64,000 nucleotides of DNA from Patescibacteria group bacterium (GCA_028718865.1 JAQUKX010000004.1:35753-99752), one strand, 5' to 3'. Shown: positions 3,408-52,192, numbered from the stretch's first letter. The notes: generated by a model from the letters alone, not told the origin. Numbers and translations: made by a program.

Positions 3408-3430
3408 AATCTTGATTTTTGGATGCTAAA

Positions 3431-3817: not shown

Positions 3818-3875
3818 ATTTTTATTAATTGCTTATTTGTCTTTAAAAATAAAAAGCCGCTTAGTCAAAAACGAC

Positions 3876-3989
3876 TTAACCTTGCCTTTGCTTGTGTTTG
3901 GGATTTTTACAGATGCAAATAACTCTATTCTTGCGACGAACTATTTTGCAATCCTTACACATTTTTTTTACTGAAGCTCTGACTTTCAT
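3876..3989 (-). CDS. rpmJ: 50S ribosomal protein L36
   Basis: Hand-translated 37-aa minus-strand [40 protein letters not shown] (C-x2-C...C...H zinc ribbon of L36); below ORF-track size cutoff; sits between infA and rpsM as in the canonical operon. Confidence 0.85.
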
Positions 3990-3994
3990 ATTTT

Positions 3995-4231
3995 TTATTT
4001 GCGGTAGGTCACGCGGCCCTTGCTCATATCATAAGGACTCATTTCCACCGTTACTTTATCGCCCGGCAAAATTCTGATTTTAAACATTCTCATCTTGCCC
4101 GACAAATGAGCCAATATTTCATGGCCGTTTTCTAAAACTACTTTAAAATTAGCGTTGGGGAGAAGCTCGGTCACTTCCCCATCCATTTCCAGAAAGCCTT
4201 TTTTATTAACTTTCGGCTCCGAAGTAGACAT
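3995..4231 (-). CDS. infA: translation initiation factor IF-1
   Basis: 78 aa; ...[43 protein letters not shown]... S1-like fold of IF-1. Confidence 0.92.
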
Positions 4232-16142: not shown

Positions 16143-16544
16143 TCAATTTATCTTTATCTTATTTAATACTTCTTCTGCTTTGCCTTCGGGATACTCTGCC
16201 TGCGACCATAGCTTGAGACCGTCTCCTTCATGTCGAGGTATAACATGAAAATGCAAATGCGGTACTACCTGGCCAGCTACTGAGTCATTATTAAGCTGTA
16301 AATTATAACCAGAGGCTAAATTTTTCTTAATAGATTGGCCTACTTTCTGAACTACCAAAATAACTTTGGCTAAAAGCTCTGGCGGGATTTCTTCAATATG
16401 TTGATAATGTTCTTTGGGCACGACCAATGAATGACCATGATTAACTGGCGCAATATCCAAAAAGGCCAAAGTATTTTCATCTTCATAAACTTTATAGCTT
16501 GGCAACTCTTTCTTAATTATTTTACAAAATATACAGTCTGACAT
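16143..16544 (-). CDS. HIT (histidine triad) family protein
   Basis: 133 aa; CIFCKII..., HLHFHVIP histidine triad. Confidence 0.85.
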   Translation of the reverse strand: MSDCIFCKIIKKELPSYKVYEDENTLAFLDIAPVNHGHSLVVPKEHYQHIEEIPPELLAKVILVVQKVGQSIKKNLASGYNLQLNNDSVAGQVVPHLHFHVIPRHEGDGLKLWSQAEYPEGKAEEVLNKIKIN

Positions 16545-36247: not shown

Positions 36248-36283
36248 TAAAAAATTACCCAGCCCCTCGGCTAAGAGGCTGGG
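36248..36283 (-). terminator. intrinsic terminator of GC-rich islet A (minus strand)
   Basis: Minus strand: ACCCAGCCucuuagccgagGGGCUGGGUaauuuuuu, 27 nt below the stop of 36309..36610. Confidence 0.65.
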
Positions 36284-36308
36284 TAAGCTGTCTGCCGCAA
36301 AAAAACGG

Positions 36309-36610
36309 CTAGATCAGGTAGGCGATGTTGTAGCTACAACGAACCGTGTGTCCGTTGACAGCCCCACACTCGTGGCAGGGCTCGGCCGGTTGCTGAGAAC
36401 GGTCATTGGACTGATTACTCTGTTTTTCCTGGCTCATGCTAGCATCTCCTTGGGTTTGTTCCTGAGGGTTGACTGACGCTAAAATAGCGCCTCTTTCTTT
36501 CTTGATTTTCTGCCAACAACTGACAGGGTTGCAAAAAGCTTGTCCGCAATAAAGACAACGCCACTCTCCTTTGGGCAGGCTGCTTTGACAGCCGCTTTTT
36601 TCATCAGACA
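36309..36610 (-). CDS. hypothetical small Cys-rich protein (islet A)
   Basis: 100 aa from internal Met MSDEKSGCQSS...; AGGAGGA SD 5 nt upstream (gcttcAGGAGGAagcttATG); Cys motifs C-x2-C ... C-x4-C and C-x2-C ... C; GC-rich codons unlike the host. Confidence 0.55.
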
Positions 36611-36627
36611 TAAGCTTCCTCCTGAAG

Positions 36628-36876
36628 CTAAATGGCCGTATTGATGCCTCGTGGATCAAAGCCGCCGCCACACATGCAGTAGATGCTATCATCAGGACAG
36701 CGACAATTCTCCCTAAGAATAAAGGCAATGGAATGCTCGTAGCCACGACGGTGGCTTGAATTTGCTCTACAGCGCTCCAACAAAGCGTAGAGACTATCCA
36801 AAATGGCGATTTTGAAAGGTCCGAGGACCGGCCCTTTCTTGGGCTGATGCCTCAAATCAACTGACAACTGACTCAT
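36628..36876 (-). CDS. hypothetical small protein (islet A)
   Basis: 82 aa; SD GGGAGGTAAGGAGCA then ATG; C-terminal CRCPDDSIYCMCGGG; 17-nt gap to the next gene. Confidence 0.5.
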   Translation of the reverse strand: MSQLSVDLRHQPKKGPVLGPFKIAILDSLYALLERCRANSSHRRGYEHSIAFILRENCRCPDDSIYCMCGGGFDPRGINTAI

Positions 36877-37147
36877 TGCTCCTTACCTCCCTGTTGGTTG
36901 AAAAGATGAAAGTGAACCTGGAACTTAGCTAAAATTGAAATGTACTAGCCAAAAAACAACAAAAAAATCGCCTAAGTATTGGCGATTCGCGTTTTGGTGT
37001 TTAGAGGCTTGATTATTATTACCAGCAAAAAGCGACCGCCTAAGGCGAGAGCAAAATAATGCTAATAATGACAATCAAATTTCTAAACATATATTTATCT
37101 TAAATATAATAACATAAAATATAAAAATGTCAAATTAAAAAATGATT

Positions 37148-37180
37148 GAGCGGGCGGAAAGCAGTGCTTTCCGCCCGCTC
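37148..37180 (-). terminator. intrinsic terminator inside islet A
   Basis: Perfect 15-bp GC-rich stem GAGCGGGCGGAAAGC-agt-GCTTTCCGCCCGCTC; on the minus strand it is followed by aaucauuuuuu. Confidence 0.65.
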
Positions 37181-37184
37181 TTGC

Positions 37185-37325
37185 CTAAAAATGACGCTCC
37201 AATCCCTGGAAAAACTGCCGGATGATTTCCTCCTTTCTGGCTTTGGCTTTATTGTCCTCAGAACCGGCCGGCGAAGCCGAAGCAGGCAGATTTTCTCGGC
37301 CGGGAAGCTGATCTCTCGGATTCAC
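37185..37325 (-). CDS. possible 46-aa ORF with GTG start (islet A)
   Basis: GGAGGAgtagtcGTG then NPRDQLPGRENLPASASPAGSEDNKAKARKEEIIRQFFQGLERHF stop; hand-translated, below the ORF-track cutoff. Confidence 0.25.
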   Translation of the reverse strand: MNPRDQLPGRENLPASASPAGSEDNKAKARKEEIIRQFFQGLERHF

Positions 37326-37342
37326 GACTACTCCTCCTCTGC

Positions 37343-37558
37343 TTAAGGAAAAATCCTAGCCAAGCAAGACCGGAGGTCTTGCAGAACAAAGCGCCGGCAC
37401 TCATCGCCGTCGCAGCAGTCAAAAACCATACAGCCACGGCTGTACTCATAGCGAGCTGGCGCTCCGCAATTACTGCAGATTCTGACCTGACCGCTGGCAT
37501 CCAGCTGCGACTTGGGGTTCAACTGGTATTCCCTAGGTTCTTCCCTGTACTTGCTCAT
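37343..37558 (-). CDS. hypothetical small Cys-rich zinc-ribbon-like protein (islet A)
   Basis: 71 aa MSKYREEPREYQLNPKSQLDASGQVRICSNCGAPARYEYSRGCMVFDCCDGDECRRF...; SD gtcAGGAGGagctgacaATG. Confidence 0.55.
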   Translation of the reverse strand: MSKYREEPREYQLNPKSQLDASGQVRICSNCGAPARYEYSRGCMVFDCCDGDECRRFVLQDLRSCLARIFP

Positions 37559-37810
37559 TGTCAGCTCCTCCTGACTGCTTGTGGTTTGTTTGACCCTGAA
37601 TTGAAGAAGACTTCTAGACTTGGATGTGAAAAGAACAATCAAAAAAGGCCGCTTTTAGGCGCCCTTAGTTTCACTATACTCAAATTATCGGATATATGAA
37701 AAAACTAAGTCGCCAAACGACCAATGAAAAAGTAAAAGCTAAAGAATGACGAATTTGATCTTATATCCATAAATAAATCATAACAAAAATAAAAGATAAG
37801 TCAAGCAAAA

Positions 37811-38821
37811 TTAATCTTTTGCTTCAAAATCCAAAAAATAACCGAACCTAGCTCTTCCTCTATATTGCGGTTTTTTCAAATTCAAAGTAGTGATTATGCC
37901 GCGCGGACTCAAATCATAACCTTCTATTTTTACATCCCGACCGTCAACAATGGCCGTGGCCATTACCGGTTGAGGATGGCCTATGGCATAAGCCAATTTT
38001 ACCAAGACTTCTTTGGCCTGATATTTTTTCAAATACTTTGTAGCCAGATAACGAGCCATATAAGCAGCGCTACGATCAACTTTGGTGGCATCCTTACCGC
38101 TATAGCAGCCACCGCCGACTGGAATCTGCGGGCCATAGTTATCCACAATAATTTTACGTCCGGTTAAGCCGGTATCTGCCTCAAAACCTCCTTGGACAAA
38201 AGGACCAGCTGGATTGATAAAAATATTTTTATAATCCGGTACAATAGTATCTACTATTTCTTTTTGAACCAGTTTTCTCAATTGCTCAATCTCAATCTCC
38301 GGACTATGCTGGGTGGAAATAACTACGGTTTCCACTTGGCCGTTATTGATAGTGATTTGTGATTTGCCATCGGGCCGCAAATATTTTGCCAGCTCTGACT
38401 GGCCTTTTACCCTTACTTCCTCGAGCTTTCTGGCCAAATTATAAGCCAAGACATGTTCGCGAGGAAGGAGCTCTTTGGTTTCGCTGCTAGCATAACCCAC
38501 CATGATACCCTGATCGCCAGCGCCACCGGTATCTACTCCCCGGGCAATATCAGGGCTTTGCTTAACAATATTGACGAATATTTCCAATTCTTCATCATAG
38601 CCGATTTCTTTATAAACTTCCCTGGCAATTTGGGCGGCGTCAAACTTGGCGCTGGTAGTCACCTCGCCCATAATAACTAGCTGGCCATGCCCGCCCAAAG
38701 CTTCTACTGCCACCCGACTGTCGGGATCTTGCCTCAAACATTCATCTAAAATAGCATCCGATATCTGGTCGCAAACTTTATCCGGATGACCGTAAGTTAC
38801 ATTTTCCGCTGTCTTTAGCAT
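37811..38821 (-). CDS. metK: S-adenosylmethionine synthetase (short form)
   Basis: 336 aa; GHPDKVCDQISDAILD, GGAGDQGIMVGYA and other MetK motifs. Confidence 0.88.
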   Translation of the reverse strand: MLKTAENVTYGHPDKVCDQISDAILDECLRQDPDSRVAVEALGGHGQLVIMGEVTTSAKFDAAQIAREVYKEIGYDEELEIFVNIVKQSPDIARGVDTGGAGDQGIMVGYASSETKELLPREHVLAYNLARKLEEVRVKGQSELAKYLRPDGKSQITINNGQVETVVISTQHSPEIEIEQLRKLVQKEIVDTIVPDYKNIFINPAGPFVQGGFEADTGLTGRKIIVDNYGPQIPVGGGCYSGKDATKVDRSAAYMARYLATKYLKKYQAKEVLVKLAYAIGHPQPVMATAIVDGRDVKIEGYDLSPRGIITTLNLKKPQYRGRARFGYFLDFEAKD

Positions 38822-38842
38822 TTTTTCTACTTTAATTATTTA

Positions 38843-38990
38843 AAAAACTCTCCTTTAAGAGAGTGGATAAAAATTATCTTTCCCTCACAAAGGGTTGGAC
38901 TGAGCACCTTTCTCTGCCTGCCAGCTGGCAGACAGCAAGATGGTTGCCGGCGGATCACAGAGCCAATTCTCTCCCCGCTCTCTTGATAAA
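38843..38990 (-). promoter_or_regulatory. SAM-I (S-box) riboswitch with terminator expression platform, in metK leader
   Basis: Minus strand: UUAUCAAGAGAGCGGGGAGAGAAUUGGCUCUGUGAUCCGCCGGCAACC...AAGGUGCUCAGUCCAACC...GGGAAAGAUAA (P1 UUAUC/GAUAA, conserved AGAGNGG, GGCAACC, GGUGC, AGAUAA), then hairpin CCACUCUCUUAAAGGAGAGU plus UUUUUU before the metK ATG. Confidence 0.8.
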
Positions 38991-39109
38991 ACTTTTCCGC
39001 AACTGCTGCGAAAAATATTAAATTGTTAAAAATAGTATAGCTTATTTTGAAAATTTTGACAAATATGCAATAATAATAGAGTAAAAAATAAAAAAGGAGA
39101 AATATAAAA

Positions 39110-39337
39110 ATGATTTTTAAAGAATTGAAATCCCGCAGTTTTATAAAAACTCTTAGCTGGTTTATAGTGGGATTTTCTATAACTTTAGTTGCCTTTTCCC
39201 TGATTACTGGTAATATCAAAGAAGGCTTTCATGGCTCTATTGTTGTTCAATCAATCAAGCTCTTTGCCTATTATTGGCATGAGCGAGTCTGGAGCCGCCT
39301 CAAATACGGCAAGAAATTCAATCCTGGCTTAAAATAA
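39110..39337 (+). CDS. small 2-TM membrane protein (possibly DUF2061-like)
   Basis: 75 aa; SD aaAAGGAGaaatataaaaATG; ...YYWHERVWSRLKYGKK C-terminal motif. Confidence 0.45.
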   Translation: MIFKELKSRSFIKTLSWFIVGFSITLVAFSLITGNIKEGFHGSIVVQSIKLFAYYWHERVWSRLKYGKKFNPGLK

Positions 39338-39341
39338 TTAT

Positions 39342-39653
39342 ATGAAGCTGTCTGCTCTGCAAAAATTTATTCTCAAAGAAAATTTTTTAAATAGCCGGCA
39401 GGGAAAAATTTCACGGCGCAGCTTTGATAATTTTTACAGTCAAATAAAAAAAGCGCCGGCAAAAAAAATCCGCGCTAATATCATTACCAAAAGCATAGAA
39501 CGACTAATAGATAAAGGACTGCTTATTGGTTTTGGTGAAAAAACTCAACACAAGCTTTTTATTACTCATACCAAGCTGACCAGTCATGGCCTTAAAACAG
39601 CCAAAGGGTTATTAGGAAAACAAAGTCAATTACCTTTTAAAAAAAGAAAATAA
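39342..39653 (+). CDS. hypothetical basic protein
   Basis: 103 aa, K/R-rich, 4 nt after the preceding small gene. Confidence 0.4.
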   Translation: MKLSALQKFILKENFLNSRQGKISRRSFDNFYSQIKKAPAKKIRANIITKSIERLIDKGLLIGFGEKTQHKLFITHTKLTSHGLKTAKGLLGKQSQLPFKKRK

Positions 39654-39655
39654 AG

Positions 39656-40387
39656 CTACTCAATTATCACTTTGGTGCCTAGCTGAGCCCACCAGTATAA
39701 ATGCTCCATGTCTTTATAAGCAACATTGACACAGCCGTGGCTCATAGGCTGACCAAAATTATTATGCCAATAAGCGCCGTGAATGTAATAACGGTAGGTT
39801 TTGGTAGTAAAATGCAGATTCCATTTGGTATTGGGATAATCAAAGCCTACCCCGCCATAATGTTTGACTGGTACTTTATCCAAAATTTTAAACTCTCCTT
39901 TGGGCGTTGGCGTACGAGATAAGCCGCCGGAAATAGGAAAAGAGCCAAACTCTTTACCGCCAAAATAATAAGCCAAAGTTTGTTTTTTTAAATCCACTTT
40001 GATTATTTTTTCCAATTGCACTGGCTCGGGGTTGAGAGGATCAAAGCCGGCAGCTACTTCTGTTCCGTCTAGATACAAATCACCGTCGCTGTCTGGATTC
40101 ATCAGTCCAGTACCCAAAATCAATTCCCAATAATCATTGAGATAATCATTATCCGAATCAACGTCAATTAATCTTTTACCGTTTCCGTGACGAGGCGAAT
40201 AGCCATTTTTAATTTCCAAGCCATCAGGATAACCATCGCCATCGCTATCGGGATTAAAAGGATCAGTAAAATAAATATTCAATTCATCATAATCAGACAA
40301 ACCATCGCCATCGCTATCTATCACTGCCTGAGCTGACAAGCCTAAAGGAAAACTTAAAAAAATAATTGCCAAAAATATTTTTCTCAT
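39656..40387 (-). CDS. L,D-transpeptidase (YkuD domain) with N-terminal Asp-rich Ca-binding (thrombospondin type 3-like) repeats
   Basis: Signal peptide MRKIFLAIIFLSFPLGLSAQA (start 40387); four D-x-D-x-DG repeats (DSDGDGLSDYDE, DSDGDGYPDGLE, DSDNDYLNDYWE, DSDGDLYLDGTE); catalytic YIHGAYWHNNFGQPMSHGCVNV. Confidence 0.8.
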   Translation of the reverse strand: MRKIFLAIIFLSFPLGLSAQAVIDSDGDGLSDYDELNIYFTDPFNPDSDGDGYPDGLEIKNGYSPRHGNGKRLIDVDSDNDYLNDYWELILGTGLMNPDSDGDLYLDGTEVAAGFDPLNPEPVQLEKIIKVDLKKQTLAYYFGGKEFGSFPISGGLSRTPTPKGEFKILDKVPVKHYGGVGFDYPNTKWNLHFTTKTYRYYIHGAYWHNNFGQPMSHGCVNVAYKDMEHLYWWAQLGTKVIIE

Positions 40388-40448
40388 TTTTATTATTCTA
40401 AATAATATTTGATATATTAGCATATTTTTACCTAAAATTACAGCTGAA

Positions 40449-40477
40449 TTGACAGAGAGCGTATATTATTGTATATT
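40449..40477 (+). promoter_or_regulatory. sigma70-type promoter for islet B plus-strand gene
   Basis: TTGACA-17 nt-TATATT; followed by about 115-nt leader containing three AAGGAG(G) repeats. Confidence 0.5.
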
Positions 40478-40598
40478 AAAAAAATACAAAGCCCTTTACA
40501 ACCCTTGCAATAGAAAGGAGGTTATTGAAGGAAATCAAGGAGGAGTTGGTTGTAAAACCAGCAAAAAACTTTCCCTGGGGAACAAGGAGTTGGCACGC

Positions 40599-40955
40599 AT
40601 GTGCAAGCAAAACGGAACGGCCATTCTTGGTCAATTCACCAGCAGTCTCTTCGGACTGGATCGTCCTCGCAGTGAAGCCCAAGCGGCCGAAATTGCCAAG
40701 CAAGCAGTCTTGTCTTGGGCTGCTGACCCGAGGCGGATCCGCTCCGCCTACGGTGCTCTTTCCGGAGCAACCAACGAGGCCCGACGCCTCGCCGCTCTGC
40801 CTGAGAACGACCCCCATCGACTACTGGCCACCGCCATGGTGGCCAGGATGAATGAGCTCGCCACCGACGAGCTCAAGAAGAGTCGGCAGTTCGCCGAGAT
40901 CATCAACGAGCTCAACGCTTCCCTTTATCCTCCTCGTCAAGCCGCCACGGCTTGA
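40599..40955 (+). CDS. hypothetical alpha-helical protein (islet B)
   Basis: 118 aa MCKQNGTAILGQFTSSLFGLDRPRSEAQAAEIAKQAVLSWAADPRRIRSAYGALSGATNEARRLAALPENDPHRLLATAMVARMNELATDELKKSRQFAEIINELNASLYPPRQAATA; SD AAGGAG 9 nt upstream; GC-rich codons. Confidence 0.5.
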   Translation: MCKQNGTAILGQFTSSLFGLDRPRSEAQAAEIAKQAVLSWAADPRRIRSAYGALSGATNEARRLAALPENDPHRLLATAMVARMNELATDELKKSRQFAEIINELNASLYPPRQAATA

Positions 40956-41002
40956 TCCTCTACCTCTCGCCCCTAGCTCCCTGAGCTAGGACCATGCCCC
41001 GC

Positions 41003-41035
41003 TTGCTGCCCGCAGTAGGCGGGGTTTTCTTTTTT
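41003..41035 (+). terminator. intrinsic terminator after islet B plus-strand gene
   Basis: GCCCGCagtagGCGGGGttttcttttttt. Confidence 0.6.
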
Positions 41036-41103
41036 TAAACTAAAAAATAAGGCGCCAGACAAAACTGTCCAGCGCCCAAGAGGAAAGAGGCCGATGTTTC
41101 GGC

Positions 41104-41481
41104 CTAGTCCCAACCGGCCGGAGCCGGATCCGGAGGTACGATGTGTCCGACCAGTTCTAGATAGCTCTCCAGATCCTGCGGTTTGACCGCAGCGGCTGAG
41201 CGTAAGTTGCGCCAAGCCACCACTACTTCGTCGCCACCAGCCAAACCGGCTGGCAGAAAGAGCTTGAAGCCGCGGTTGCTGGGAAGATAGACGGCAAAAC
41301 GGAAAAGGGTACGCCCATTTTTCTTGCCAGCCGGCTGCAAACAAGCTAGACGAGGCAGAGCCCATCTAGCCGCACGAATGTGGGGCCTGATAAAATATGC
41401 GGCTGCCCCGGGCGGAATGATGATCTTCTGCCCTTGGGCAACTTCAAAGCTGGGATTTTCCAAATGAATGCCCTGATTCAT
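41104..41481 (-). CDS. hypothetical protein (islet B), convergent with 40599..40955
   Basis: 125 aa MNQGIHLENPSFEVAQGQKIIIPPGAAAYFIRPHIRAARWALPRLACLQPAGKKNGRTLFRFAVYLPSNRGF...; SD cctGGAGGtcaaaaATG. Confidence 0.5.
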   Translation of the reverse strand: MNQGIHLENPSFEVAQGQKIIIPPGAAAYFIRPHIRAARWALPRLACLQPAGKKNGRTLFRFAVYLPSNRGFKLFLPAGLAGGDEVVVAWRNLRSAAAVKPQDLESYLELVGHIVPPDPAPAGWD

Positions 41482-41573
41482 TTTTGACCTCCAGGGAAGA
41501 GGGTGTTGTCAGGCACTCTTACTCCTTAATGCGGCGCCTAACTTATTAATATAAGCGGATTTTATAAGCAAAG

Positions 41574-42725
41574 TCAATACTGACGGCTCCGGCGGCTGGC
41601 TTGACGACTAAAACGATGCGCTTCTTCCCGACTTTGCAGCAGAATATTTTTTATACTATCGGTCAACTGCTTAAACTGCTTGTCGGCTCCTCTGGTATAG
41701 ACTAGTTTATCACCGGCTAATTTGGAAATACCGACTATCGGCACTCTGATATTTTTTAATTTAAAAAAATTATCCACAAAATCAACCTGCGGCCGGCCGC
41801 CATCCAGCATAATAATATCAGGCTGGGGCCACTCATGATGATTAAAACGCCTAGTTAAGACTTCAACCAAGGCCCGCAAATCATCGGCGGCCGGAGCGCT
41901 TTTTATTTTAAACAAACGATACTGACTTTTATCAGCTTGACCGTTACTAAAAACTACCATGGATCCATAAGGCTCCTTGCCAGCCAAATGGGATATATCA
42001 TAACCCTCAATGCGGCTCAGGCCGGCCATACCGAAATCATCACGGCTGATTAAAGAAGCATCGCTGATATGTTTGAGGCTGGCTATCAAATCTGGATTTT
42101 CTTTGGCCAATTTTTTGACCAATCTTTTTTTGTCGCCTTGTAAAAGCAAAATTATATTTTTTATATTATTTTTATATTTTGCCCGACTGACTTCGCCAAC
42201 ACAAATACCTGGACACAGACCTATCTGATAATCAAAACAAGGCCGGCCTTGCTTGGGCCGACAAGTGCTATAAGGGAAAAGGCGACGGATTATGCGCAAG
42301 GCACCGCGCAGTAAATGCTGAGCCTGATAAGGCCCAAAAATATAAGCCTTGCTTTTGGGAAATTTTTTTAGCTGGCGACCGCGGACAATAAACGGATAAG
42401 GATAATCACCTTTGGCAATGACTATGTAGATAAAAGAACGGTCATCGCGATCACGGACATTATACTTGGGCCAAAATTTCTTGATCAAATTGGCTTCCAA
42501 AATTACACTGTCAAGGATAGTCTCGGTTTTTTCGTATTTAATATCATTAGCTTGGGTAACCATCTCTTCTATTCTTGGCTCCAAATCTTTTCGAAAATAC
42601 TGGGAAATTCTCTTTTTGAGCGAGCCAGCCCGGCCAATATAAAGCACTCCTCTCTTTTTATCCAAAAAGCGATAAACGCCCGGTGTATCAGGAAAATTTT
42701 TAATTTTATTTTTCAAATTCGGCAT
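41574..42725 (-). CDS. uvrC: excinuclease ABC subunit C, short form lacking the C-terminal (HhH)2 domain
   Basis: 383 aa; GIY-YIG (PGVYRFLDKKRGVLYIGRAGSLKKR), Cys-rich region, UvrBC-like helix and RNase H-like domain (EGYDISHLAG...); ORF stops where the HhH region would begin. Confidence 0.8.
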   Translation of the reverse strand: MPNLKNKIKNFPDTPGVYRFLDKKRGVLYIGRAGSLKKRISQYFRKDLEPRIEEMVTQANDIKYEKTETILDSVILEANLIKKFWPKYNVRDRDDRSFIYIVIAKGDYPYPFIVRGRQLKKFPKSKAYIFGPYQAQHLLRGALRIIRRLFPYSTCRPKQGRPCFDYQIGLCPGICVGEVSRAKYKNNIKNIILLLQGDKKRLVKKLAKENPDLIASLKHISDASLISRDDFGMAGLSRIEGYDISHLAGKEPYGSMVVFSNGQADKSQYRLFKIKSAPAADDLRALVEVLTRRFNHHEWPQPDIIMLDGGRPQVDFVDNFFKLKNIRVPIVGISKLAGDKLVYTRGADKQFKQLTDSIKNILLQSREEAHRFSRQASRRSRQY

Positions 42726-42726
42726 T

Positions 42727-45237: not shown

Positions 45238-45339
45238 AAATTTAATTAAAAATTTCTGCGGACAGATAATACTACGAGCGATTTAGGCGAAGCCGTTAAG
45301 CGAATAATATTATCTGGAAGCGATATTATTCGTTAGTTA

Positions 45340-47193
45340 TTATTTTTTAATTTTTGGCTTAGCTTCAATATCCAAAAATCTTTCCATTTTTTTAATAATG
45401 GTTTTAGGTTCTATTTTGTGTTTTTTATTATAAGCCAGTTGTAAAAAACGGCGGCGATTGACTTCATTGATTGCTCTTTTGATAGAACCAGTGAGCTTGT
45501 CGGCATAAAGTATTACCTGGCCTCTGACATTTCTAGCTGCTCGCCCCATAGTCTGAACCAATGAAGTTTCACTGCGCAAAAAGCCTTCCCGGTCAGCATC
45601 CAAAATCGCCACCAAAGACACCTCTGGCAAATCCAAACCTTCCCGCAAAAGATTGACGCCAATCAAGACATCAAACTTGCCGCGCCGAAAATCCAGCAGA
45701 ATATCCGTCCGCTCTATTGTCTTGATATCCGAATGAATATAATTGGATTTTATGTTTTTTTTCTTTAAATAAGCGTGCAAATCCTCGGCTTGACGCTTGG
45801 TCAAAGTATTGATTATTGTTCTTTCTTTTTTACTACTGATTTTTTCTATTTCTTTGATAATATCGTCTATTTGGCTTTGATTATTTTTTTTGTCAAAAAC
45901 CGGCCGGACTTCTATTGGCGGATCTATCAAGCCAGTAGGCCGGATAAGCTGCTGGGCTACTTGCCGACTGTGCTCAAGTTCCCATTTGCCTGGAGTGGCT
46001 GAGGTAAAAATAGTCTGCCCAACGCGGCTGATAAACTCATCAAATTTTAGCGGTCGATTATCCAGCGCTGAAGGCAAGCGCCAGCCGTATTGCACTAGAG
46101 TTTCTTTGCGACTTCTGTCACCCTCGTACATACCTCTAACTTGAGGCAAAGCAATATGCGACTCATCCATAATAGTCAAAAAATCTGGCCGACCGTCTTT
46201 GGCTGGAAAATAAGCCAGCAAAGTATCCGGCGCTTGGCCAGCCGGCTTGCCCGTCAAGTGGCGGGAATAATTTTCTATGCCATGGCAGTAGCCCAGCGAA
46301 GCCAGCATCTCCATATCATAGCGAGTCCGCCTTTCCAGACGCTCCTGTTCCAGATAAAGTTTTTTCTTGGCCAGATAAGCCAGCCTTTCTTTGAGCTCGG
46401 CTTTGATATCCCTTATGGCTCGCTTGGTTTCTGGCTGGGAAGAGACAAAATGCTTGACTGGAAATAACAAGGCTTCTTGCAAATCTTCTTTTACTTTTCT
46501 GGTCAGTTTATCTACCAGCAAAATTGAACTAATTTTTTGTTCAGTAAGCTCTAAACGATAAATCAGCTTCTGGGCAGCCGGCATTATTTCAAACACATCC
46601 CCCCTGACTCGGAAAAGCCCTCTTTTCAATTCTCCGGGCGTGCGAGTAAATTGGATATTGACCAGTTGTTTTATCAAATCGCCTCTGACTATATTCTGCC
46701 CCAGAGTCAAATGAAGGCAAGACTGCAAATAATTGACCGGTAAGCCGAGATTGTAAATACAGGAAACCGAAGCCACTACTATCACATCTCTTCTGGTCAA
46801 AAGAGCGGAAGTAGCTTGATGGCGCAAGCGGTCAATTTCATCATTGATCATTGCTTCTTTTTCTATATAAGTATCAGTGATAGGCATATAAGCCTCAGGC
46901 TGATAATAATCATAATAAGAAACAAAATAATTAACCGAATTTTCCGGAAAAAAATTCTTATACTCACGATAAAGCTGAGCAGCCAGAGCTTTGTTGGGCG
47001 CCATTACCAAAACCGGCTTGTCAAACTGAGCAATTACATTGGCCATAGTAAAAGTCTTGCCCGAGCCAGTTACTCCCAAAAGAGTTTGATAATCATAGCC
47101 TTTTCCCAATCCAGCAATAAGCCTGTTTATAGCTTGAGGCTGATCTCCGGCCGGCTCAAAAGGCGCTTTTAATTTAAATATTTTTTTAGTCAT
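45340..47193 (-). CDS. uvrB: excinuclease ABC subunit B
   Basis: 617 aa; LGVTGSGKTFTMANVI Walker A, helicase motifs, C-terminal UvrB/UvrC interaction region. Confidence 0.92.
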   Translation of the reverse strand: MTKKIFKLKAPFEPAGDQPQAINRLIAGLGKGYDYQTLLGVTGSGKTFTMANVIAQFDKPVLVMAPNKALAAQLYREYKNFFPENSVNYFVSYYDYYQPEAYMPITDTYIEKEAMINDEIDRLRHQATSALLTRRDVIVVASVSCIYNLGLPVNYLQSCLHLTLGQNIVRGDLIKQLVNIQFTRTPGELKRGLFRVRGDVFEIMPAAQKLIYRLELTEQKISSILLVDKLTRKVKEDLQEALLFPVKHFVSSQPETKRAIRDIKAELKERLAYLAKKKLYLEQERLERRTRYDMEMLASLGYCHGIENYSRHLTGKPAGQAPDTLLAYFPAKDGRPDFLTIMDESHIALPQVRGMYEGDRSRKETLVQYGWRLPSALDNRPLKFDEFISRVGQTIFTSATPGKWELEHSRQVAQQLIRPTGLIDPPIEVRPVFDKKNNQSQIDDIIKEIEKISSKKERTIINTLTKRQAEDLHAYLKKKNIKSNYIHSDIKTIERTDILLDFRRGKFDVLIGVNLLREGLDLPEVSLVAILDADREGFLRSETSLVQTMGRAARNVRGQVILYADKLTGSIKRAINEVNRRRFLQLAYNKKHKIEPKTIIKKMERFLDIEAKPKIKK

Positions 47194-47335
47194 AAATATT
47201 CCTAAAATACCGCAAACGCCCCAAGTTTTTTGGGGTGTTTATAGACGATAAATATATCATAACATATATCAGAAAAAAGGCTAGTTTTGATATCTATTAA
47301 ACAAAAAAATCAAGCTCAAAGCTTGTTTTAAAATA

Positions 47336-47364
47336 TTGACATTTAATAATATTTATGCTATATT
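47336..47364 (+). promoter_or_regulatory. sigma70-type promoter for islet C gene
   Basis: TTGACA-17 nt-TATATT about 45 nt upstream of the SD. Confidence 0.5.
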
Positions 47365-47408
47365 ACTATGTTTTTTGTACAAAAACCCTCTGCCTAAGGG
47401 AGATAAAG

Positions 47409-47666
47409 ATGGAAATCCGAATCATCCTCTACCTCATGATGGCTACCCAAATGGTAGCCTGGGCTTGGATGCAATCCAAGGGAGGCAAATTGTCCGACCA
47501 CCGTTATATCGCCTTTTGTGCGATGATGATGGTCGGCCAGACCGGCGCCAGCTTGGAATGCATTTTCAACCAAGCTTGGGGCACCCTGGTGGTGCAAATC
47601 TACTTCTTCCTCTTTACCGCCTATGGCGGCTACAAGAGGTATCAACAAATGAGACCCACCTCATGA
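47409..47666 (+). CDS. hypothetical small membrane protein (islet C)
   Basis: 86 aa MEIRIILYLMMATQMVAWAWMQSKGGKLSDHRYIAFCAMMMVGQTGASLECIFNQAWGTLVVQIYFFLFTAYGGYKRYQQMRPTS; SD ctAAGGGAGataaagATG; three hydrophobic segments; GC-rich. Confidence 0.5.
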   Translation: MEIRIILYLMMATQMVAWAWMQSKGGKLSDHRYIAFCAMMMVGQTGASLECIFNQAWGTLVVQIYFFLFTAYGGYKRYQQMRPTS

Positions 47667-47671
47667 ACATG

Positions 47672-47713
47672 ACCCGCTAAGTAGCTTCGGCCAACAGCGG
47701 GTTTAATTTTTTT
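47672..47713. terminator. intrinsic terminator between convergent islet C gene and NUDIX gene
   Basis: ACCCGCTaagtagcttcggccaacAGCGGGTttaattttttt. Confidence 0.55.
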
Positions 47714-48232
47714 CTACAACAATTTTAAATAATCCAAACCCAAATAAGCCGACTCAATATCTGTAAGTTGTCCACCTTTTAAATGTTTCCTAAATTCTGC
47801 CAAAGACATTTCTACTATTTCTATAAACTCATTTTCTTCTAACTTTTGTTTCTGTATTTTATGGCAATTTATAGCAACAAAATTATACCTAATCATCGTT
47901 GAATAAGCACAATCCAAGCTCTCTCCCACAAATTGAAAATCTCCTATATAACCTGTTTCTTCCAAAAATTCTCTTTTGGCCGCCTCTAGAGGAGTTTCGT
48001 TTTTATCCACCAATCCCCCTGGTAATTCCAAAAGTGTTTTTTCCGGACCAGGTCTAAACTGTCTAGCCAATACTACATTATTATCTTTACTAAGAGCCAA
48101 AATACAAACTGCCGGCCCTTCTTTTTTAATATCAAAATCCTCTATTTTACCATTTGGCAACTGAAAAGTTTTTTTAATCAACTTCCTAAAACCTGCTTGA
48201 AAAGAATCTTCTTTTATTTTTTTCCAGTCCAT
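47714..48232 (-). CDS. NUDIX hydrolase (ADP-ribose pyrophosphatase-like)
   Basis: 172 aa; Nudix box GGLVDKNETPLEAAKREFLEETGY. Confidence 0.85.
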   Translation of the reverse strand: MDWKKIKEDSFQAGFRKLIKKTFQLPNGKIEDFDIKKEGPAVCILALSKDNNVVLARQFRPGPEKTLLELPGGLVDKNETPLEAAKREFLEETGYIGDFQFVGESLDCAYSTMIRYNFVAINCHKIQKQKLEENEFIEIVEMSLAEFRKHLKGGQLTDIESAYLGLDYLKLL

Positions 48233-48247
48233 TAGTTTTTTAATTTT

Positions 48248-48862
48248 TTATTTCCCCAGTTCATTTTCATTTAGCACTTTTTTATTTTTGTTTTTTATAA
48301 ACCTACTCCTATAAATTATCAGCATCAACGATGAATTGAGAATAAGCAGATATATAGGAAAAGCTATTTCTGAAATAGCAAATGTCCTTAAAGCGAAAAA
48401 ACTAGTCAAAGAATTGAATACTCCTGTTGAATAAGCTTCTACTGATTCTGTTTCTGGATATTTCCAAGACTTGATAAGAGTCGGCATAGCCGCAAAAAAA
48501 TCAGCCGCCAGGGCAAAGATAATAGCCACTACTGGCTCCTTGGTAATCCACCAAAGAATTAGGGCTAAAATTGATAGAGTGCCACAAGCATAATCAAAAG
48601 TTCTCAATCGCCAATATGATTTTTTATTTGCAAAAGAAACAATAAAAACCAACAATGGAGCAAAGCCAGCCATAAATACTGGCAACACAGCCAAACGAAC
48701 GCCATCAGATAAGGCTGCTGAAGTGGCAATCAGCGGTGCTATAGACCACATTAGCCAAGTGACCCGATTGGGTTTTGTGTTGCCTTTGATTGTTTCTTTT
48801 ACATAGATATATATTCCAGCCAACTGGACAAAAGCACCTATGAAGACTATGTATTGGGTCAT
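48248..48862 (-). CDS. hypothetical multi-pass membrane protein
   Basis: 204 aa, 6-7 hydrophobic helices. Confidence 0.5.
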   Translation of the reverse strand: MTQYIVFIGAFVQLAGIYIYVKETIKGNTKPNRVTWLMWSIAPLIATSAALSDGVRLAVLPVFMAGFAPLLVFIVSFANKKSYWRLRTFDYACGTLSILALILWWITKEPVVAIIFALAADFFAAMPTLIKSWKYPETESVEAYSTGVFNSLTSFFALRTFAISEIAFPIYLLILNSSLMLIIYRSRFIKNKNKKVLNENELGK

Positions 48863-48875
48863 GTATTTATCTATG

Positions 48876-49871
48876 TTATTTTTCTCTCTTTACCACCAAC
48901 TGCCCGCAAGCAGCCTCTATATCTTTGCCAAAACTATAGCGCTGAGTAACTAACACTCCTTCTCTTTCCAAAATGCTTTTAAATTTTCTGATTTCTGAAC
49001 TACGAGAAGCTTTGAAAACTTCCGTAGGATTATAAGCAATTAGATTGAGTAGATAAAGCGGTTTTTTCATCAGCTTGGCCAGCTCTTGAGCATGCTGAGG
49101 CTGATCATTGACACCTCGGATCATCAAATATTCAAACATCACTTGCCTATCGGTCTTGGCAATATATTTATCTACTTCGGCCAAAAGATCTTTAAGGGGA
49201 AAGCGTTTGTTAATTGGCATTAGTTGAGTACGCAATTTATCATTGGGAGCATGTAAAGATATAGCCAGATTAATTTGCTTGTCATAAGTAGCTAATTTTT
49301 TGATACCATGAATAACTCCGCTGGTGGAAATAGAAATTCGTCTGGCGCCAATTTTGAAATCTTCATTGAGATATTTGATAGCCTTGATTACATTATCGTA
49401 ATTTAAAAAAGGCTCGCCCATGCCCATAAAAACAATATTGCTTATCCTCTGCTTGTCTTTGGCCAAATAGCGAGCAAAAAATAAAGCCTGATCAATTATC
49501 TCGCCATATTGCAAATTCCTGACCAGACCCATTTTGCCGGTAGCACAAAAACTGCAACCCAAAGGACAGCCAATCTGACTGGAAAGACAAACTGTATATC
49601 GTCCGTCTTTATGACTAAGGAGCACAGTTTCTATTTTTTGGTCATCGGCCAAAATCAAAAGAGCTTTTATAGACTGTCCGTCTGAGGAAATCTTTGTTTC
49701 TCCTTTTATTTCCAAAGGACAGGCCTGATTAAGCTGATTTTTGAGTTCTTTGGGCAAAGTACTGGCTTGCTCCCAATTATCAGCTAGTTGATCAAAAATA
49801 ACCGCTTTAGCCTGGCTAACGCGGTATTTGGGCTGATCTTTTAAAATCTTATATAATTTATCAAAATCCAT
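48876..49871 (-). CDS. rlmN: radical SAM 23S rRNA/tRNA adenine C2-methyltransferase RlmN/Cfr family
   Basis: 331 aa; CPLGCSFCATG radical-SAM cluster motif, GMGEP and C-terminal Cys of RlmN. Confidence 0.85.
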   Translation of the reverse strand: MDFDKLYKILKDQPKYRVSQAKAVIFDQLADNWEQASTLPKELKNQLNQACPLEIKGETKISSDGQSIKALLILADDQKIETVLLSHKDGRYTVCLSSQIGCPLGCSFCATGKMGLVRNLQYGEIIDQALFFARYLAKDKQRISNIVFMGMGEPFLNYDNVIKAIKYLNEDFKIGARRISISTSGVIHGIKKLATYDKQINLAISLHAPNDKLRTQLMPINKRFPLKDLLAEVDKYIAKTDRQVMFEYLMIRGVNDQPQHAQELAKLMKKPLYLLNLIAYNPTEVFKASRSSEIRKFKSILEREGVLVTQRYSFGKDIEAACGQLVVKREK

Positions 49872-49916
49872 GTTTGCATTATAGCAAAAGTCCTAGAAAA
49901 TACTAGGACTCTATAC

Positions 49917-51254
49917 TTACAAAGAAAATTTTTCGTAATGGATTTTGCTTGGCGGATTTGGCAATGACTTGAGTAATTTTTTGACACTATCAATCATGGC
50001 TGGCGGACCGCAAAGATAAACTTCTCGCCTATCAATATCCGGCACTAGACGTTTTATTTTTTCCTCATCCACATGCCCTTTTTCCCCAGCAAAGTCAGCT
50101 TGCTCGCTCAAAATATGAATTATCTGCGCTCCTTTGGCTTGAGCCAATTGTTCTAGTTCATCTTTGAAAACAATATCTTGACTACTTCTGTTGGCATAAA
50201 GCAATTTGATGTCCTTGCCTTTTTTTAGCATCTCTTCCATTAGCGATCTAATAGGAGTAATGCCAATACCACCGGCAATCAAAAGAATTGAACGACTGTC
50301 GCTAAATAAATCAGTAAAAATACCATAAGGCCCTTCAATAATTATTGGCGTGCCCGGGACAATTTGATCAATGCGAGAAGTAAAGTCCCCGATTTTTTTT
50401 ATAGTAAAACGCAGAGAATGGCCATCAGGTAATTTGGATAAAGAAAAAGGATGAGCCTGCCACCAATTTTTTTTATCCAAAAAGCGTAAAATCATAAACT
50501 GACCAGCTTGAATTTTAAAATTTTCTAAATTGCGTCCGGAAATATAAACTGAAACAGTGTTGTGGTTTTCCCTAAATATTTTTTCCACCTTAAATTGATG
50601 CTTTTTGAAAAGTATAAAAGGTCTAAAAAAACGAAAAAACAAATGACTAGAAAAAACCAAAACATACAATCCTATCCAGTAGCTATAAAAAACCTTGCTG
50701 GCCAAAAAATCGCCCCCTAACCTGACTTGATGCCAAAAAGAAGAAAAAACTGCCAGATAAACCAGCAAGTGCACAAAATACCAAGCTTCATAAGGTAATT
50801 TTTTACGCACTATATAAATAGAGCTGGCAATCACCACTAAAAATAAAAACAGACCCAAGAAAGCCAAGCCAAGGTCGTCAAAGTTTTTGAAAAAAACTAG
50901 CAGTTGAGCGCCAAAGCCAGAGCGGGAAAAAACCGAATAGCTGGCCACTAAAAAAACAGGATGAAGCAAGAGAAAAATCAAGCTCCATTGTCCGCTCAAG
51001 CGATGAACTCGTGACAACTTGTCCAGACCAAAAGCGCTCTCCAGCCAGGGCATACGACCCATAAAAACAAACTGGAGCATCACTGCATAAGCTGCCAATA
51101 GTCCAGCAATGCGCCCCAGGGCTAGGAGCAAATAGCCTCTGCCCTGAGAAAGAAGCGAGCCTGATCCTTGCCACCAGAAAAATAAAATAAGCAAAGCATT
51201 GACCAGTAGAAAACTCAGCCAAAATCGTCTCGCCCAAAAAATATTTTTGCGCAT
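49917..51254 (-). CDS. ferric reductase-like transmembrane domain fused to FAD/NAD(P)-binding FNR-like domain
   Basis: 445 aa; 6 TM helices with paired His (HRLSGQW...LLLHPV; YFVHLLVY...FWHQV), then HPFSL FAD motif and LIAGGIGITP NAD(P) motif. Confidence 0.8.
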   Translation of the reverse strand: MRKNIFWARRFWLSFLLVNALLILFFWWQGSGSLLSQGRGYLLLALGRIAGLLAAYAVMLQFVFMGRMPWLESAFGLDKLSRVHRLSGQWSLIFLLLHPVFLVASYSVFSRSGFGAQLLVFFKNFDDLGLAFLGLFLFLVVIASSIYIVRKKLPYEAWYFVHLLVYLAVFSSFWHQVRLGGDFLASKVFYSYWIGLYVLVFSSHLFFRFFRPFILFKKHQFKVEKIFRENHNTVSVYISGRNLENFKIQAGQFMILRFLDKKNWWQAHPFSLSKLPDGHSLRFTIKKIGDFTSRIDQIVPGTPIIIEGPYGIFTDLFSDSRSILLIAGGIGITPIRSLMEEMLKKGKDIKLLYANRSSQDIVFKDELEQLAQAKGAQIIHILSEQADFAGEKGHVDEEKIKRLVPDIDRREVYLCGPPAMIDSVKKLLKSLPNPPSKIHYEKFSL

Positions 51255-51256
51255 TT

Positions 51257-51781
51257 TTATTCAACTATCAATTTTCCTACCATGCCCATTTGGCGATGTT
51301 GGCCAACCGAGCAGTAAAATTCAAATTCACCAGTTCTGTCAGCGATAAATTCAATAGTCTGCTCTTCACCAGCCTGCATTTGCCTGGTAGCGGCATTGAA
51401 TTCATCCAGCACCCAGTCATGGAAGCCTTCTTCATTGACAAAACGCAAACGCACCAAGTCTCCCTGCTTGACTCTGATCTCGCTACTAGAATAGCCAAAG
51501 TTAAAAGCAGTTATATTGACCTCGCTGACATTAAGGCTTGTATCAATATCAAGGCTAGTGTCAATTCCTACTTCTAAAACAGAATTGTCACTATCATTGT
51601 CCATTTCCTCTCCTAAATTGCCGTTATTTTCCAGCTCCAGCTCAAAATCGCCATTGTTTTCCTGGGCAACTTCCTGGCCGTTTTGTAATCCCAAACCCTC
51701 TTCGCTTTGACGGCTGGAAACAAACCACAAGCCTCCCAAGAGAACAACTAGCAAAATTATAAATAAATATACTTTATTCAT
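51257..51781 (-). CDS. cupredoxin (type-1 blue copper protein), membrane-anchored/secreted
   Basis: 174 aa; N-terminal TM/signal; C-terminal ...GFHDWVLDEF...YCSVGQHRQMGM with the H/C/H/M type-1 Cu ligand set; 2 nt upstream of the ferric-reductase gene. Confidence 0.75.
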   Translation of the reverse strand: MNKVYLFIILLVVLLGGLWFVSSRQSEEGLGLQNGQEVAQENNGDFELELENNGNLGEEMDNDSDNSVLEVGIDTSLDIDTSLNVSEVNITAFNFGYSSSEIRVKQGDLVRLRFVNEEGFHDWVLDEFNAATRQMQAGEEQTIEFIADRTGEFEFYCSVGQHRQMGMVGKLIVE

Positions 51782-51972
51782 ATATTTTCTTACTATTAAT
51801 TATTATTTATTAGATAAATAGCAATGAATTGCTTTATTTATAATAAAGGAAAAAAGGAAATTCTTCAATAGCTAGCAGGAACATTGACGATTTTAAAAAA
51901 AAATTATATTATAAAAAAACCTGGTTTATCTGGGCAATAGGCAGGATGGACACTGCTCAGGAGGAAATACAG

Positions 51973-52137
51973 ATGCGCAAAAACTACGATCTGCATCACA
52001 CTGTTCTCAAACTAAGCTGGCTATATCTGGCCAGCCAGGTCGCCATCGCCGCCTTGCTGGGCTTCATGCCCAAACACAGTTCTCATGCTCCGCAAGGAGC
52101 AACTCATCATATAGAGCGAGTCGTCTCCTCAAAGTAG
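51973..52137 (+). CDS. hypothetical 54-aa protein (islet D)
   Basis: MRKNYDLHHTVLKLSWLYLASQVAIAALLGFMPKHSSHAPQGATHHIERVVSSK; SD gctcAGGAGGaaatacagATG; one hydrophobic helix; GC-rich. Confidence 0.45.
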   Translation: MRKNYDLHHTVLKLSWLYLASQVAIAALLGFMPKHSSHAPQGATHHIERVVSSK

Positions 52138-52154
52138 ACGACGCTGGTAGCTCC

Positions 52155-52192
52155 GCCGGCAGACGCAAAGCGTCTGCCGGCTTTCTTTTTTT
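52155..52192 (+). terminator. strong intrinsic terminator after islet D gene
   Basis: GCCGGCAGACGCaaaGCGTCTGCCGGCtttcttttttt (12-bp perfect stem). Confidence 0.75.

Follow-up and report, generated by a model that had tools for sequence, protein, structure and literature searches.

GC-rich, Shine–Dalgarno-led small-gene units between housekeeping genes of a Patescibacteria genome: probably native, lineage-restricted genes in at least two of four islets

Do genes that differ from their surroundings in base composition, codon usage and translation signals have to be newcomers to the genome that carries them? The question is raised by a 64,000-nt stretch of a metagenome-assembled genome (MAG) contig from a Patescibacteria group bacterium (GCA_028718865.1, JAQUKX010000004.1:35753-99752; hereafter the window, in whose coordinates positions are given), where four GC-rich patches with short open reading frames (ORFs) are scattered between positions 36,248 and 52,192. 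Islet 1 lies between hup and metK (ORFs a71, b46, c82 and d100), islet 2 between the L,D-transpeptidase gene ldt and uvrC (e118 and f125), islet 3 between uvrB and a NUDIX gene (g85), and islet 4 between a cupredoxin and a dehydrogenase gene (h54). Looked up by exact sequence, these eight ORFs, UvrB and MetK were assigned to a 100-kb contig of the MAG (locus tags PHO91_021xx–022xx). A sequence-only reading of the region had proposed that they are foreign small-gene cassettes, acquired repeatedly. The ORF sizes (46–125 aa) and flanking genes that it gave are confirmed, the latter with Pfam support for HU, MetK, the YkuD L,D-transpeptidase, UvrC, UvrA and UvrB, NUDIX, cupredoxin and the GSDH dehydrogenase, whereas its explanation is not supported for islets 1 and 2. 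The answer that we favour, and consider rather probable, is that the patches hold six autonomous units, those of islets 1 and 2 at least being native, vertically inherited and lineage-restricted genes of a small Komeilibacteria-like clade.

The patches are indeed sharply set off. The mean GC of the window is 40.4%, so that the genome, described beforehand as AT-rich, is only moderately so, and in a GC scan with 200-nt windows the patches peak at 0.54–0.57 (islets 1, 3 and 4) and 0.645 (islet 2). Only islet 2 (40.5–41.5 kb) exceeds a GC of 0.6, and the peaks of the other three are close to values that a few host genes also reach internally. When the eight islet ORFs are compared with 56 host genes at gene level, every islet gene lies above all host genes in GC (lowest islet gene 0.494, highest host gene 0.468; Mann–Whitney p = 2e-10), and GC at third codon positions (GC3) is 0.52–0.70 in the islet genes versus 0.39 ± 0.08 in the host genes. 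The second distinguishing mark is the Shine–Dalgarno (SD) site. An upstream SD core of at least 5 nt precedes all eight islet ORFs and 2 of the 56 host genes (Fisher p = 1e-8); the genes of S11, S13 and IF1 (3009–4231, −) are among those that lack one. Start regions, taken from −30 to +33, have a GC of 0.47 and a folding minimum free energy of −11.4 kcal/mol in islet genes, compared with 0.28 and a mean of −5.7 kcal/mol in host genes (p = 3e-4). These figures suggest that SD-independent initiation on AT-rich, open start regions is the default in this organism; GC-rich, structured start regions would be unable to use that route, so that they would need an SD. An AGGAG is found at few AT-rich genes of host type, two of which encode a 75-aa DUF2061 membrane protein (39110–39337, +) and a HIT-family protein (16143–16544, −), so that the ribosome is presumably able to use an SD when there is one.

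The four patches resolve into six autonomous units, two in islet 1 (units 1 and 2), two in islet 2 (units 3 and 4) and one each in islets 3 and 4 (units 5 and 6), each consisting of a sigma-70 promoter, a leader, one or more SD-led small ORFs and a strong terminator. In a consensus scan for promoters and terminators covering 35.7–52.5 kb, the top three promoter matches (11/12; at 40449+, 47336+ and 37133−) and the five strongest terminator hairpins are all islet-borne, in agreement with the expression signals noticed from sequence alone. The E. coli-like promoter is no hallmark of the islets, since the same TTGACA/TATAAT type is found at the host genes hup and metK (in its riboswitch leader); the islets are distinguished by SD use and composition only. 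As a general plan, a host-type sigma-70 promoter and a conserved leader would precede one SD-led ORF or two, and a strong intrinsic terminator would close the unit and insulate it from the housekeeping genes on both sides.

Evidence for native genes comes from relatives. A scan with UvrB gave the syntenic loci of two genomes, the closest among species representatives: L005, a Patescibacteria MAG from groundwater, and L006, Candidatus Komeilibacteria. Their UvrB proteins are 78–79% identical to that of the window. All three share the order radical-SAM gene, uvrB, uvrA, uvrC, gap, ldt, o103, metK, gap, hup, h701. The first gap corresponds to islet 2. In both L005 and L006 it contains GC-rich, SD-led small genes, including related 140-aa genes and, in L006, a 127-aa homologue of f125 (32% identity); in L093, from another sample, orthologues of f125 (52% identity) and e118 follow uvrC in the same order and orientation, with GC3 values of 0.66 and 0.70 against 0.29–0.36 in neighbouring genes. 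Homology of e118 with the 140-aa genes that occupy its position in L005 and L006 was considered and dropped, as no similarity could be detected; the orthologue is the L093 gene. The second gap corresponds to islet 1. In L001 (92% nucleotide identity) and L002 (78%), both from other samples, metK is followed by homologues of a71 and b46, and L005 carries a 2-kb GC-rich islet with c82 and d100 orthologues between metK and hup. The c82 gene also lies beside hup in L085–L088, and its family members adjoin hup wherever the context was read; d100 is also present in L085 and L086, with only its C-terminal half in L088 and nothing in L087. Altogether, islets 1 and 2 are represented at the same sites in L001, L002, L005, L006, L085–L088 and L093. 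The sequence-only reading had itself suggested a search of relatives for gaps without islets and had named islets at shared loci as evidence against recent acquisition; for islets 1 and 2, shared loci are what the search returned.

The shared genes are moreover constrained as coding sequences. The dN/dS ratio is 0.05–0.09 for a71 (against L001 and L002), 0.11–0.25 for c82 and 0.19–0.5 for d100, so that, judged by substitution patterns, the genes of islets 1 and 2 are under purifying selection; the islet proteins would be fast-evolving yet constrained. Their composition has persisted as well. Between the window and the L005 group, synonymous sites are saturated (pS at least 0.76), but the orthologues have a GC3 of 0.49–0.80 as against 0.27–0.36 in neighbouring genes, in host genomes of 33–40% GC. 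For c82 and d100 in particular, GC3 is 0.49–0.67 in six of six genomes, while that of hup and h701 is 0.28–0.36 in the AT-richer relatives. Synonymous changes polarised within the L005, L085, L086 and L087 group are balanced, with 16 changes from G/C to A/T (S>W) and 13 in the opposite direction (W>S), where a neutral host mutation bias acting on a GC3 of about 0.57 predicts a proportion of S>W of 0.7–0.8 (p ~0.002–0.16, depending on assumptions). Saturated synonymous sites together with balanced changes argue against a decaying foreign signature and favour a GC-rich state that is maintained, either by selection or because a recombination-prone site undergoes GC-biased gene conversion. The GC-rich make-up would then be a steady state and not a fading foreign signal. 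Part of it may reflect codon choice, as islet genes share with ribosomal protein genes a preference for C-ending codons (TAC, AAC, GTC, GAC). As a full cause of the high GC3, the codon bias of highly expressed genes was rejected: G-ending codons, GC1 and GC2 (GC at first and second codon positions) are raised too, and ribosomal protein genes have a lower GC3 than the islet genes. Together with the shifted amino acids, this makes codon optimisation insufficient by itself and a partial cause at most.

Several observations weigh against native genes with a maintained composition: (i) the substitution-direction test comprises 29 changes polarised by parsimony only; (ii) GC1, GC2 and amino acids are shifted along with GC3 (Ala, Arg, Pro and Cys up, Lys and Ile down); (iii) the islet 3 and 4 genes have no known orthologues and are missing from L005 and L006, so that 'native and ancient' is proposed for islets 1 and 2 only. 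A transfer from a very GC-rich donor long ago, with slow amelioration, keeps some probability. In its explicit form, the ancestor of the clade would have acquired the genes from such a donor or a phage, after which they descended vertically, with an unfinished amelioration that is perhaps slowed by GC-biased gene conversion at a hot spot of recombination and owes nothing to selection. The shift of all codon positions and of amino acid content is what it predicts, and the presence/absence variation of the islets, the contigs of several assemblies that break at islet borders and the similar GC-rich orphan genes found at other Patescibacteria loci fit it. So does the synonymous divergence of c82, which is 0.76 between L086 and L087 when that of the adjacent hup and h701 genes is 0.11–0.16; this hints at replacement of an allele, or at substitutions that are locally faster in the islet, and, taken with the variable content among relatives, fits a recombination hot spot. 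Against it, with UvrB only 78% identical and pS saturated, neutral amelioration should be essentially complete; GC3 is alike (0.5–0.7) in all lineages, synonymous changes are in balance between S>W and W>S, and no donor was found. We therefore hold the ancient acquisition to be unlikely, although it is the strongest competitor to native descent as far as the origin of the genes is concerned.

How might such units be used? Both islet 1 operons appear to begin with leaders resembling leader-peptide attenuators. Unit 1 has a TTGACT-16-TATGAT promoter with a TG (37777–37804, −), kept in L001 and L002, and conservation of the non-coding DNA separating metK from a71 exceeds that of the surrounding genes. 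Directly downstream of this promoter lies a predicted Phe/Tyr-rich leader ORF, MDIRSNSSFFSFYFFIGRLAT (37705–37770, −), with five Phe and one Tyr in 21 residues; in the window its ATG is located 6 nt after the −10 box (6–9 nt in all copies of this Phe type), so that the mRNA is likely leaderless. Four mutually complementary segments occupy 37640–37722 (−): segment 1 is GGUCG, segment 2 GGCGACU, segment 3 (A/G)GUCGCC and segment 4 GCGGCC, with helix 1:2 at 37708–37722, helix 3:4 at 37645–37666, the stop codon of the leader ORF directly 3' of segment 2 and a U-tract after segment 4. Copies of this Phe-type module are present in the window, L001, L002, L088 and, twice, in L005. They show synonymous TTT/TTC changes and precede different Cys-rich genes, with peptides such as SFFFFYFFSG and NYFGFYFFFS and one variant that is poorer in Phe and Tyr. 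Helices 1:2, 2:3 and 3:4 are available in nearly all of the 5–6 divergent sequences, with some compensatory changes (RNAalifold and pair counts). A covariance model of the Phe-type leader found no further copies in the 0.7 Mb made up by the window and 47 Patescibacteria loci (48 sources) and gave a weak match on the leader of unit 2.

Unit 2 starts from a TTGACA-16-TATTAT promoter (37106–37133, −) kept in L002, L005, L085 and L088, directly followed by a predicted Ile-rich leader ORF, MFRNLIVIISIILLSP (37040–37090, −), with five Ile, three Leu and one Val in 16 residues. The peptide is kept in the same four relatives, and over the five lineages (MFRxLIxIISIILLxP) changes are mostly synonymous or conservative. 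A hairpin of some 100 nt (fold z = −4.65; 39 pairs in the consensus hairpin) has the ORF as its 5' arm, and some 90 nt separate the c82 SD from a leader terminator upstream of it (GAAUCGCC...GGCGAUU plus U-tract; 36950–36988, −; scan and folding).

These leaders suggest the following scheme. The end of the leader ORF overlaps the first of four segments and a U-tract follows the last, as in a classical attenuator. A ribosome that reaches the leader stop codon, or the lack of any ribosome, would let the terminator form, whereas a ribosome stalled at Phe or Ile codons would allow segment 2 to pair with segment 3, leading to read-through into the genes for Cys-rich proteins. A shortage of charged tRNA or of translation capacity would thus switch the small proteins on; such a signal could matter to an auxotrophic symbiont.

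A number of points speak against this scheme. In a crude folding simulation with ribosome footprints, the antiterminator expected under the scheme did not emerge cleanly or consistently for the window, L001 and L002. The only sub-threshold cis-regulatory Rfam matches on the correct strand of the two leaders (E at most 5 over islet 1) are Phe_leader (RF01859; 20.2 bits versus a gathering score of 55; 36959–37102, −; E ~2) and Trp_leader (RF00513; 17.8 bits versus 41; 37639–37721, −; E ~2), both below threshold and at chance level; that no other families came up supports the scheme weakly, but the Phe_leader match sits on the Ile-type leader. Such leaders occur only in islet 1, and no connection between the genes downstream and the metabolism of Phe or Ile is apparent. 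Finally, the full leader peptides are conserved beyond what an attenuator needs, and the ORFs could be functional hydrophobic peptides or reflect constraint on RNA structure alone. The former possibility can be widened to peptides of a membrane or type I toxin-like kind, or to leaders that are small RNAs unrelated to downstream control. The strong conservation of the whole Ile-type peptide over five lineages points that way, as do a promoter and a terminator proper to each leader, the latter about 90 nt before the next ORF, and a long stable hairpin over the ORF that recalls type I toxin mRNAs. On the other hand, 16–24 residues are short for a membrane-spanning toxin, the four-segment alternative pairing is conserved with the stop codon right after segment 2, and the top scan matches include no promoter between leader terminator and downstream genes, so that the latter should depend on read-through. 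Peptides or small RNAs without a role in downstream control hence appear improbable to us, to about the same degree as the ancient transfer.

If the attenuator scheme is combined with native descent, a bolder proposal results: a lineage that initiates translation mostly without SD would keep a class of GC-rich, SD-dependent small-protein genes, with islet 1 under leaderless Phe/Ile-sensing attenuators, as a regulon that answers starvation or translation stress with orphan mini-proteins of zinc type, their unusual composition being actively maintained through selection on mRNA structure or stability or through biased gene conversion. We put this forward tentatively and regard it as doubtful in its entirety, if slightly less so than the two alternatives just weighed.

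Recent, repeated acquisition of cassettes from GC-rich, SD-using donors (a bacterial host, a phage or a plasmid) into permissive intergenic sites, i.e. the initial proposal, fares worse. Deviant composition and SD use are its natural basis, to which GC1, GC2 and amino acids shifted as in genes of GC-rich genomes can be added. Islet content also varies: the metK–hup gap of L006 is only 137 bp, L005 has no f125 homologue, L087 lacks d100, and g85, the NUDIX gene and p204 are absent between uvrB and the radical-SAM gene in L005 and L006. No orthologues of the islet 3 and 4 genes were found, and a later gain of these two islets is possible. However, a71, c82, d100, e118 and f125 have orthologues at the same loci despite synonymous saturation. 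Their families are tiny (7, 3 and about 5–8 members among 1.8–5.8 billion proteins), and every member whose context was read belongs to an AT-rich Patescibacteria genome (for L092, the context is a 1.5-kb contig only). A metagenome scan with a c82 profile returned the known L005 contig and one spurious antisense match (L090, a 51%-GC contig). A search of the eight islet proteins with tblastn against 50,697 phage and 72,556 plasmid records gave nothing, scans of IMG/VR with c82, f125 and g85 revealed no relatives, and no GC-rich donor of islet genes, no flanking direct or inverted repeats common to the units and no integrase were found; the promoters, as said, are of host type. As a general account of islets 1 and 2, recent acquisition is thus refuted; over all four patches we judge it quite unlikely, more so than an ancient transfer.

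Could the patches be structured non-coding RNAs, their ORFs being by-products of the scarcity of stop codons in GC-rich DNA? Islet 2 does have overlapping ORFs in four frames, and the transcripts of units 5 and 6 fold better than shuffled sequences (z = −3.9 and −5.1), but the terminators supply much of that z-score and no Rfam family reaches threshold within the islets (gathering score over the whole window; E at most 5 over islet 1). In addition, dN/dS is 0.05–0.5, amino acid motifs are kept in a71, c82, d100 and f125, GC content is periodic by codon position (most clearly in g85) and a correctly spaced SD precedes every ORF. This interpretation is refuted for islets 1 and 2 and very improbable overall. 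Least probable of all, to the point of being negligible, is a chimeric assembly of GC-rich fragments from other organisms of the metagenome, for which one may invoke the abrupt switch in composition and the short contigs that often end near islets. Against it, Logan contigs L003, L004 and L091 of the same run (SRR22315506) are 100% identical to the window over islets 1, 3 and 4 with their flanks; they join islet 1 to hup and span islets 3 and 4 each from one flank to the other, and assemblies of other samples (ENA, NCBI, JGI and Logan) have the same junctions for islets 1 and 2. Chimerism is therefore excluded for islets 1, 3 and 4 and, from synteny in other samples, very unlikely for islet 2. 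In several independent assemblies, contigs start or stop no more than a few hundred bases from islet 1 (L085 1–313, L086 1–229 and L087 1–187; the end of L003, at window position 37621), which may reflect strain-level variation or uneven coverage.

As to the products of islet 1, unit 1 encodes a71, a 71-aa Cys-rich protein (CxxC...C...CC...C; 37343–37558, −; SD AGGAGGAG; GC3 0.62), and b46, a 46-aa protein with a GTG start (37185–37325, −; SD GAGGAGGAG) whose C-terminal GLERxF is kept in L002; it ends in a terminator with a perfect 15-bp stem and T-tract (37148–37180, −). Unit 2 encodes c82, an 82-aa protein (36628–36876, −; SD GGGAGGTAAGGAG) with the motif NCRCPxDSxxCxCGGG, invariant in the seven family members, and d100, a 100-aa protein with two Cys clusters (36309–36611, −) and the conserved motif WRCxYCxQxFCxPxSC, followed by a terminator at 36255–36286 (−). 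An SD-led ATG lies inside d100 at 36437 (window 36309–36437, −), and L088 has an independent 48-aa gene (1528–1674) that matches the last 42 residues of d100, so d100 may be a fusion of two mini-proteins or the source of two products. In the protein collection c82 occurs as a Logan prediction only, and a cluster look-up gave no NCBI entry, which suggests that annotation of the MAG may have missed it.

In islet 2, unit 3 has a TTGACA-17-TATATT promoter (40449–40477, +), kept in L093, and a 120-nt leader (40478–40598, +) with three SD-like motifs (AAAGGAGG, AAGGAGGAG and AAGGAG), whose counterpart in L093 lies at about 6332–6460 (−). This leader is better conserved between the two than the e118 coding region and protein; a 1-nt indel between them means that no upstream ORF is conserved and that the leader is not coding, and it could serve as a ribosome standby site or a decoy. 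The e118 gene itself (40599–40955, +; GC3 0.64) encodes a 118-aa Ala/Arg-rich protein, probably helical as judged by sequence, whose orthologue at the same place in L093 is x134, and it is followed by a terminator at 40996–41025 (+). Convergent with the latter is the terminator of unit 4 (41050–41077, −), which transcribes f125 (41104–41481, −; SD TGGAGGT) from a TTGACT-18-TATATT promoter overlapping the uvrC stop (41548–41577, −). The 125-aa product is a small β-barrel, and in its leader a hairpin with compensatory changes encloses an SD-like motif.

Unit 5, in islet 3, comprises a TTGACA-17-TATATT promoter with a TG (47336–47364, +), g85 (47409–47666, +), encoding an 85-aa hydrophobic protein that probably has three membrane spans (GC by codon position 0.43/0.41/0.70), and a terminator identified by folding, with an 8-bp stem, a large loop and a T-tract (47672–47705, +). 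The g85 SD, GGGAG, is able to pair with CCCUC at 47386–47390, forming a hairpin over the SD. In the window (stretch compared, 47714–48862) g85, the NUDIX gene and the 204-aa ORF separate uvrB from the radical-SAM gene (48876–49871), which abuts uvrB in L005 (~9848–10001) and L006 (~9875–10001); it is the whole block that varies, beyond the GC-rich g85. Unit 6, in islet 4, has a TTGACG-17-TATTAT promoter (51884–51912, +), h54, encoding a 54-aa protein with one hydrophobic span (51973–52137, +; SD AGGAGGAA; 63 aa if the start is at 51946), and a terminator with a 12-bp stem and T-tract (52155–52181, +). Unless stated otherwise, promoters and terminators were located by the consensus scan.

The eight islet proteins, analysed with two homologues from relatives, match nothing in Pfam, NCBIfam or PHROGs at curated cut-offs or E < 0.01, so that no recognised family emerged from profile searches any more than it had by inspection; four of the islet proteins also gave no match in a sequence search of the PDB. 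The AlphaFold2 model of c82 consists of a helical hairpin and a C-terminal Cys knuckle (predicted local distance difference test score, pLDDT, 73.5), and a fold search with it returned no match. By their cysteine patterns, including CxxC-type clusters in a71 and d100, a71, c82 and d100 probably bind metal, and g85 and h54 are probably membrane peptides. The alternative suggestion made from sequence alone, a family of small accessory proteins without an assigned role, is supported as regards the kind of protein, but the data support several unrelated lineage-specific families and not a single one.

Two further observations concern the surroundings. At Rfam 15 gathering scores the whole window yields two tRNAs and a SAM riboswitch upstream of metK and nothing else; the riboswitch (38871–38992, −; RF00162, 61 bits), directly 5' of a shortened metK (336 aa), is the sole cis-regulatory match. 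Single GC-rich genes were also seen elsewhere, in L010 (3124–3903, −), L008 (19212–19871, +), L022 (15336–16160, +, between uvrA and uvrC) and L005 (7726–8115, +); they have a GC3 of 0.62–0.84 in genomes of 36–43% GC and SD-like motifs, and have no Pfam match. GC-rich orphan islets may thus be widespread among Patescibacteria.

What these units would teach is, first, that odd composition and foreign-looking expression signals need not mean recent transfer: screens for horizontal gene transfer (HGT) based on GC content would mislabel such small genes, which annotation pipelines partly miss. This matters in Patescibacteria, which are reduced, mostly uncultured symbionts with much unannotated gene content. 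They further suggest that bulk translation may be SD-independent and a special class of genes SD-dependent, and they offer leader-peptide attenuation of nearly leaderless mRNAs as a candidate regulatory device for a lineage whose gene regulation is hardly known. New families of Cys-rich mini-proteins may in this way report the nutritional state of a symbiont. A literature search on SD use, small Cys-rich proteins and leader-peptide attenuation in Patescibacteria, or the candidate phyla radiation (CPR), found nothing relevant; if the scheme is right, it would be a case of leader-peptide attenuation outside amino acid metabolism and, as far as the literature shows, the first in CPR.

How do the islets compare with known systems? 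With phage morons they share one or two small genes under their own promoter and strong terminator, a deviant GC content, a location between conserved genes and a variable presence, but they lie in a chromosome among housekeeping genes, at the same loci over a deep divergence, and no phage relatives were found. Atypical islets and ORFans attributed to HGT likewise combine deviant GC and codon usage with orphan proteins and a patchy distribution; here, in contrast, a long divergence has left the composition stable, relatives carry the genes in synteny and there is no known donor. Integron cassettes also consist of small ORFs, orphans for the most part, with an inverted repeat behind each, whereas the units described here have their own promoters, are scattered instead of arrayed and come with no integrase. 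Their hairpins are perfect and short (stems of 12–15 bp), are followed by T-tracts and belong to no shared repeat family. An attC site is an imperfect palindrome of 60–140 nt with conserved R''/L''–L'/R' boxes (GTTRRRY); the islet hairpins have neither these boxes, judged by eye, nor the extrahelical bases, and are therefore terminators. In Bacteroidota most genes lack an SD, and the window resembles such SD-poor systems in that nearly all genes, ribosomal ones included, lack an SD and have AT-rich starts, next to an SD-led minority, which differs here in consisting mainly of GC-rich orphan small genes. Finally, the islet 1 leaders resemble the pheL/pheM, ilvL and trpL attenuators by a short ORF rich in one class of amino acid (FFSFYFF; LIVIISIILL), a stop beside the first hairpin, possible helices 1:2, 2:3 and 3:4 and a U-tract after segment 4. 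They depart from these proteobacterial examples by scores below Rfam gathering, nearly leaderless mRNAs, a Patescibacteria host and downstream genes for orphan Cys-rich proteins in place of biosynthesis or tRNA synthetase genes. In conclusion, the parts are of known kinds, namely moron-like units, ORFan islets and attenuators; what is unusual is their combination, their persistence and the lineage that hosts them.

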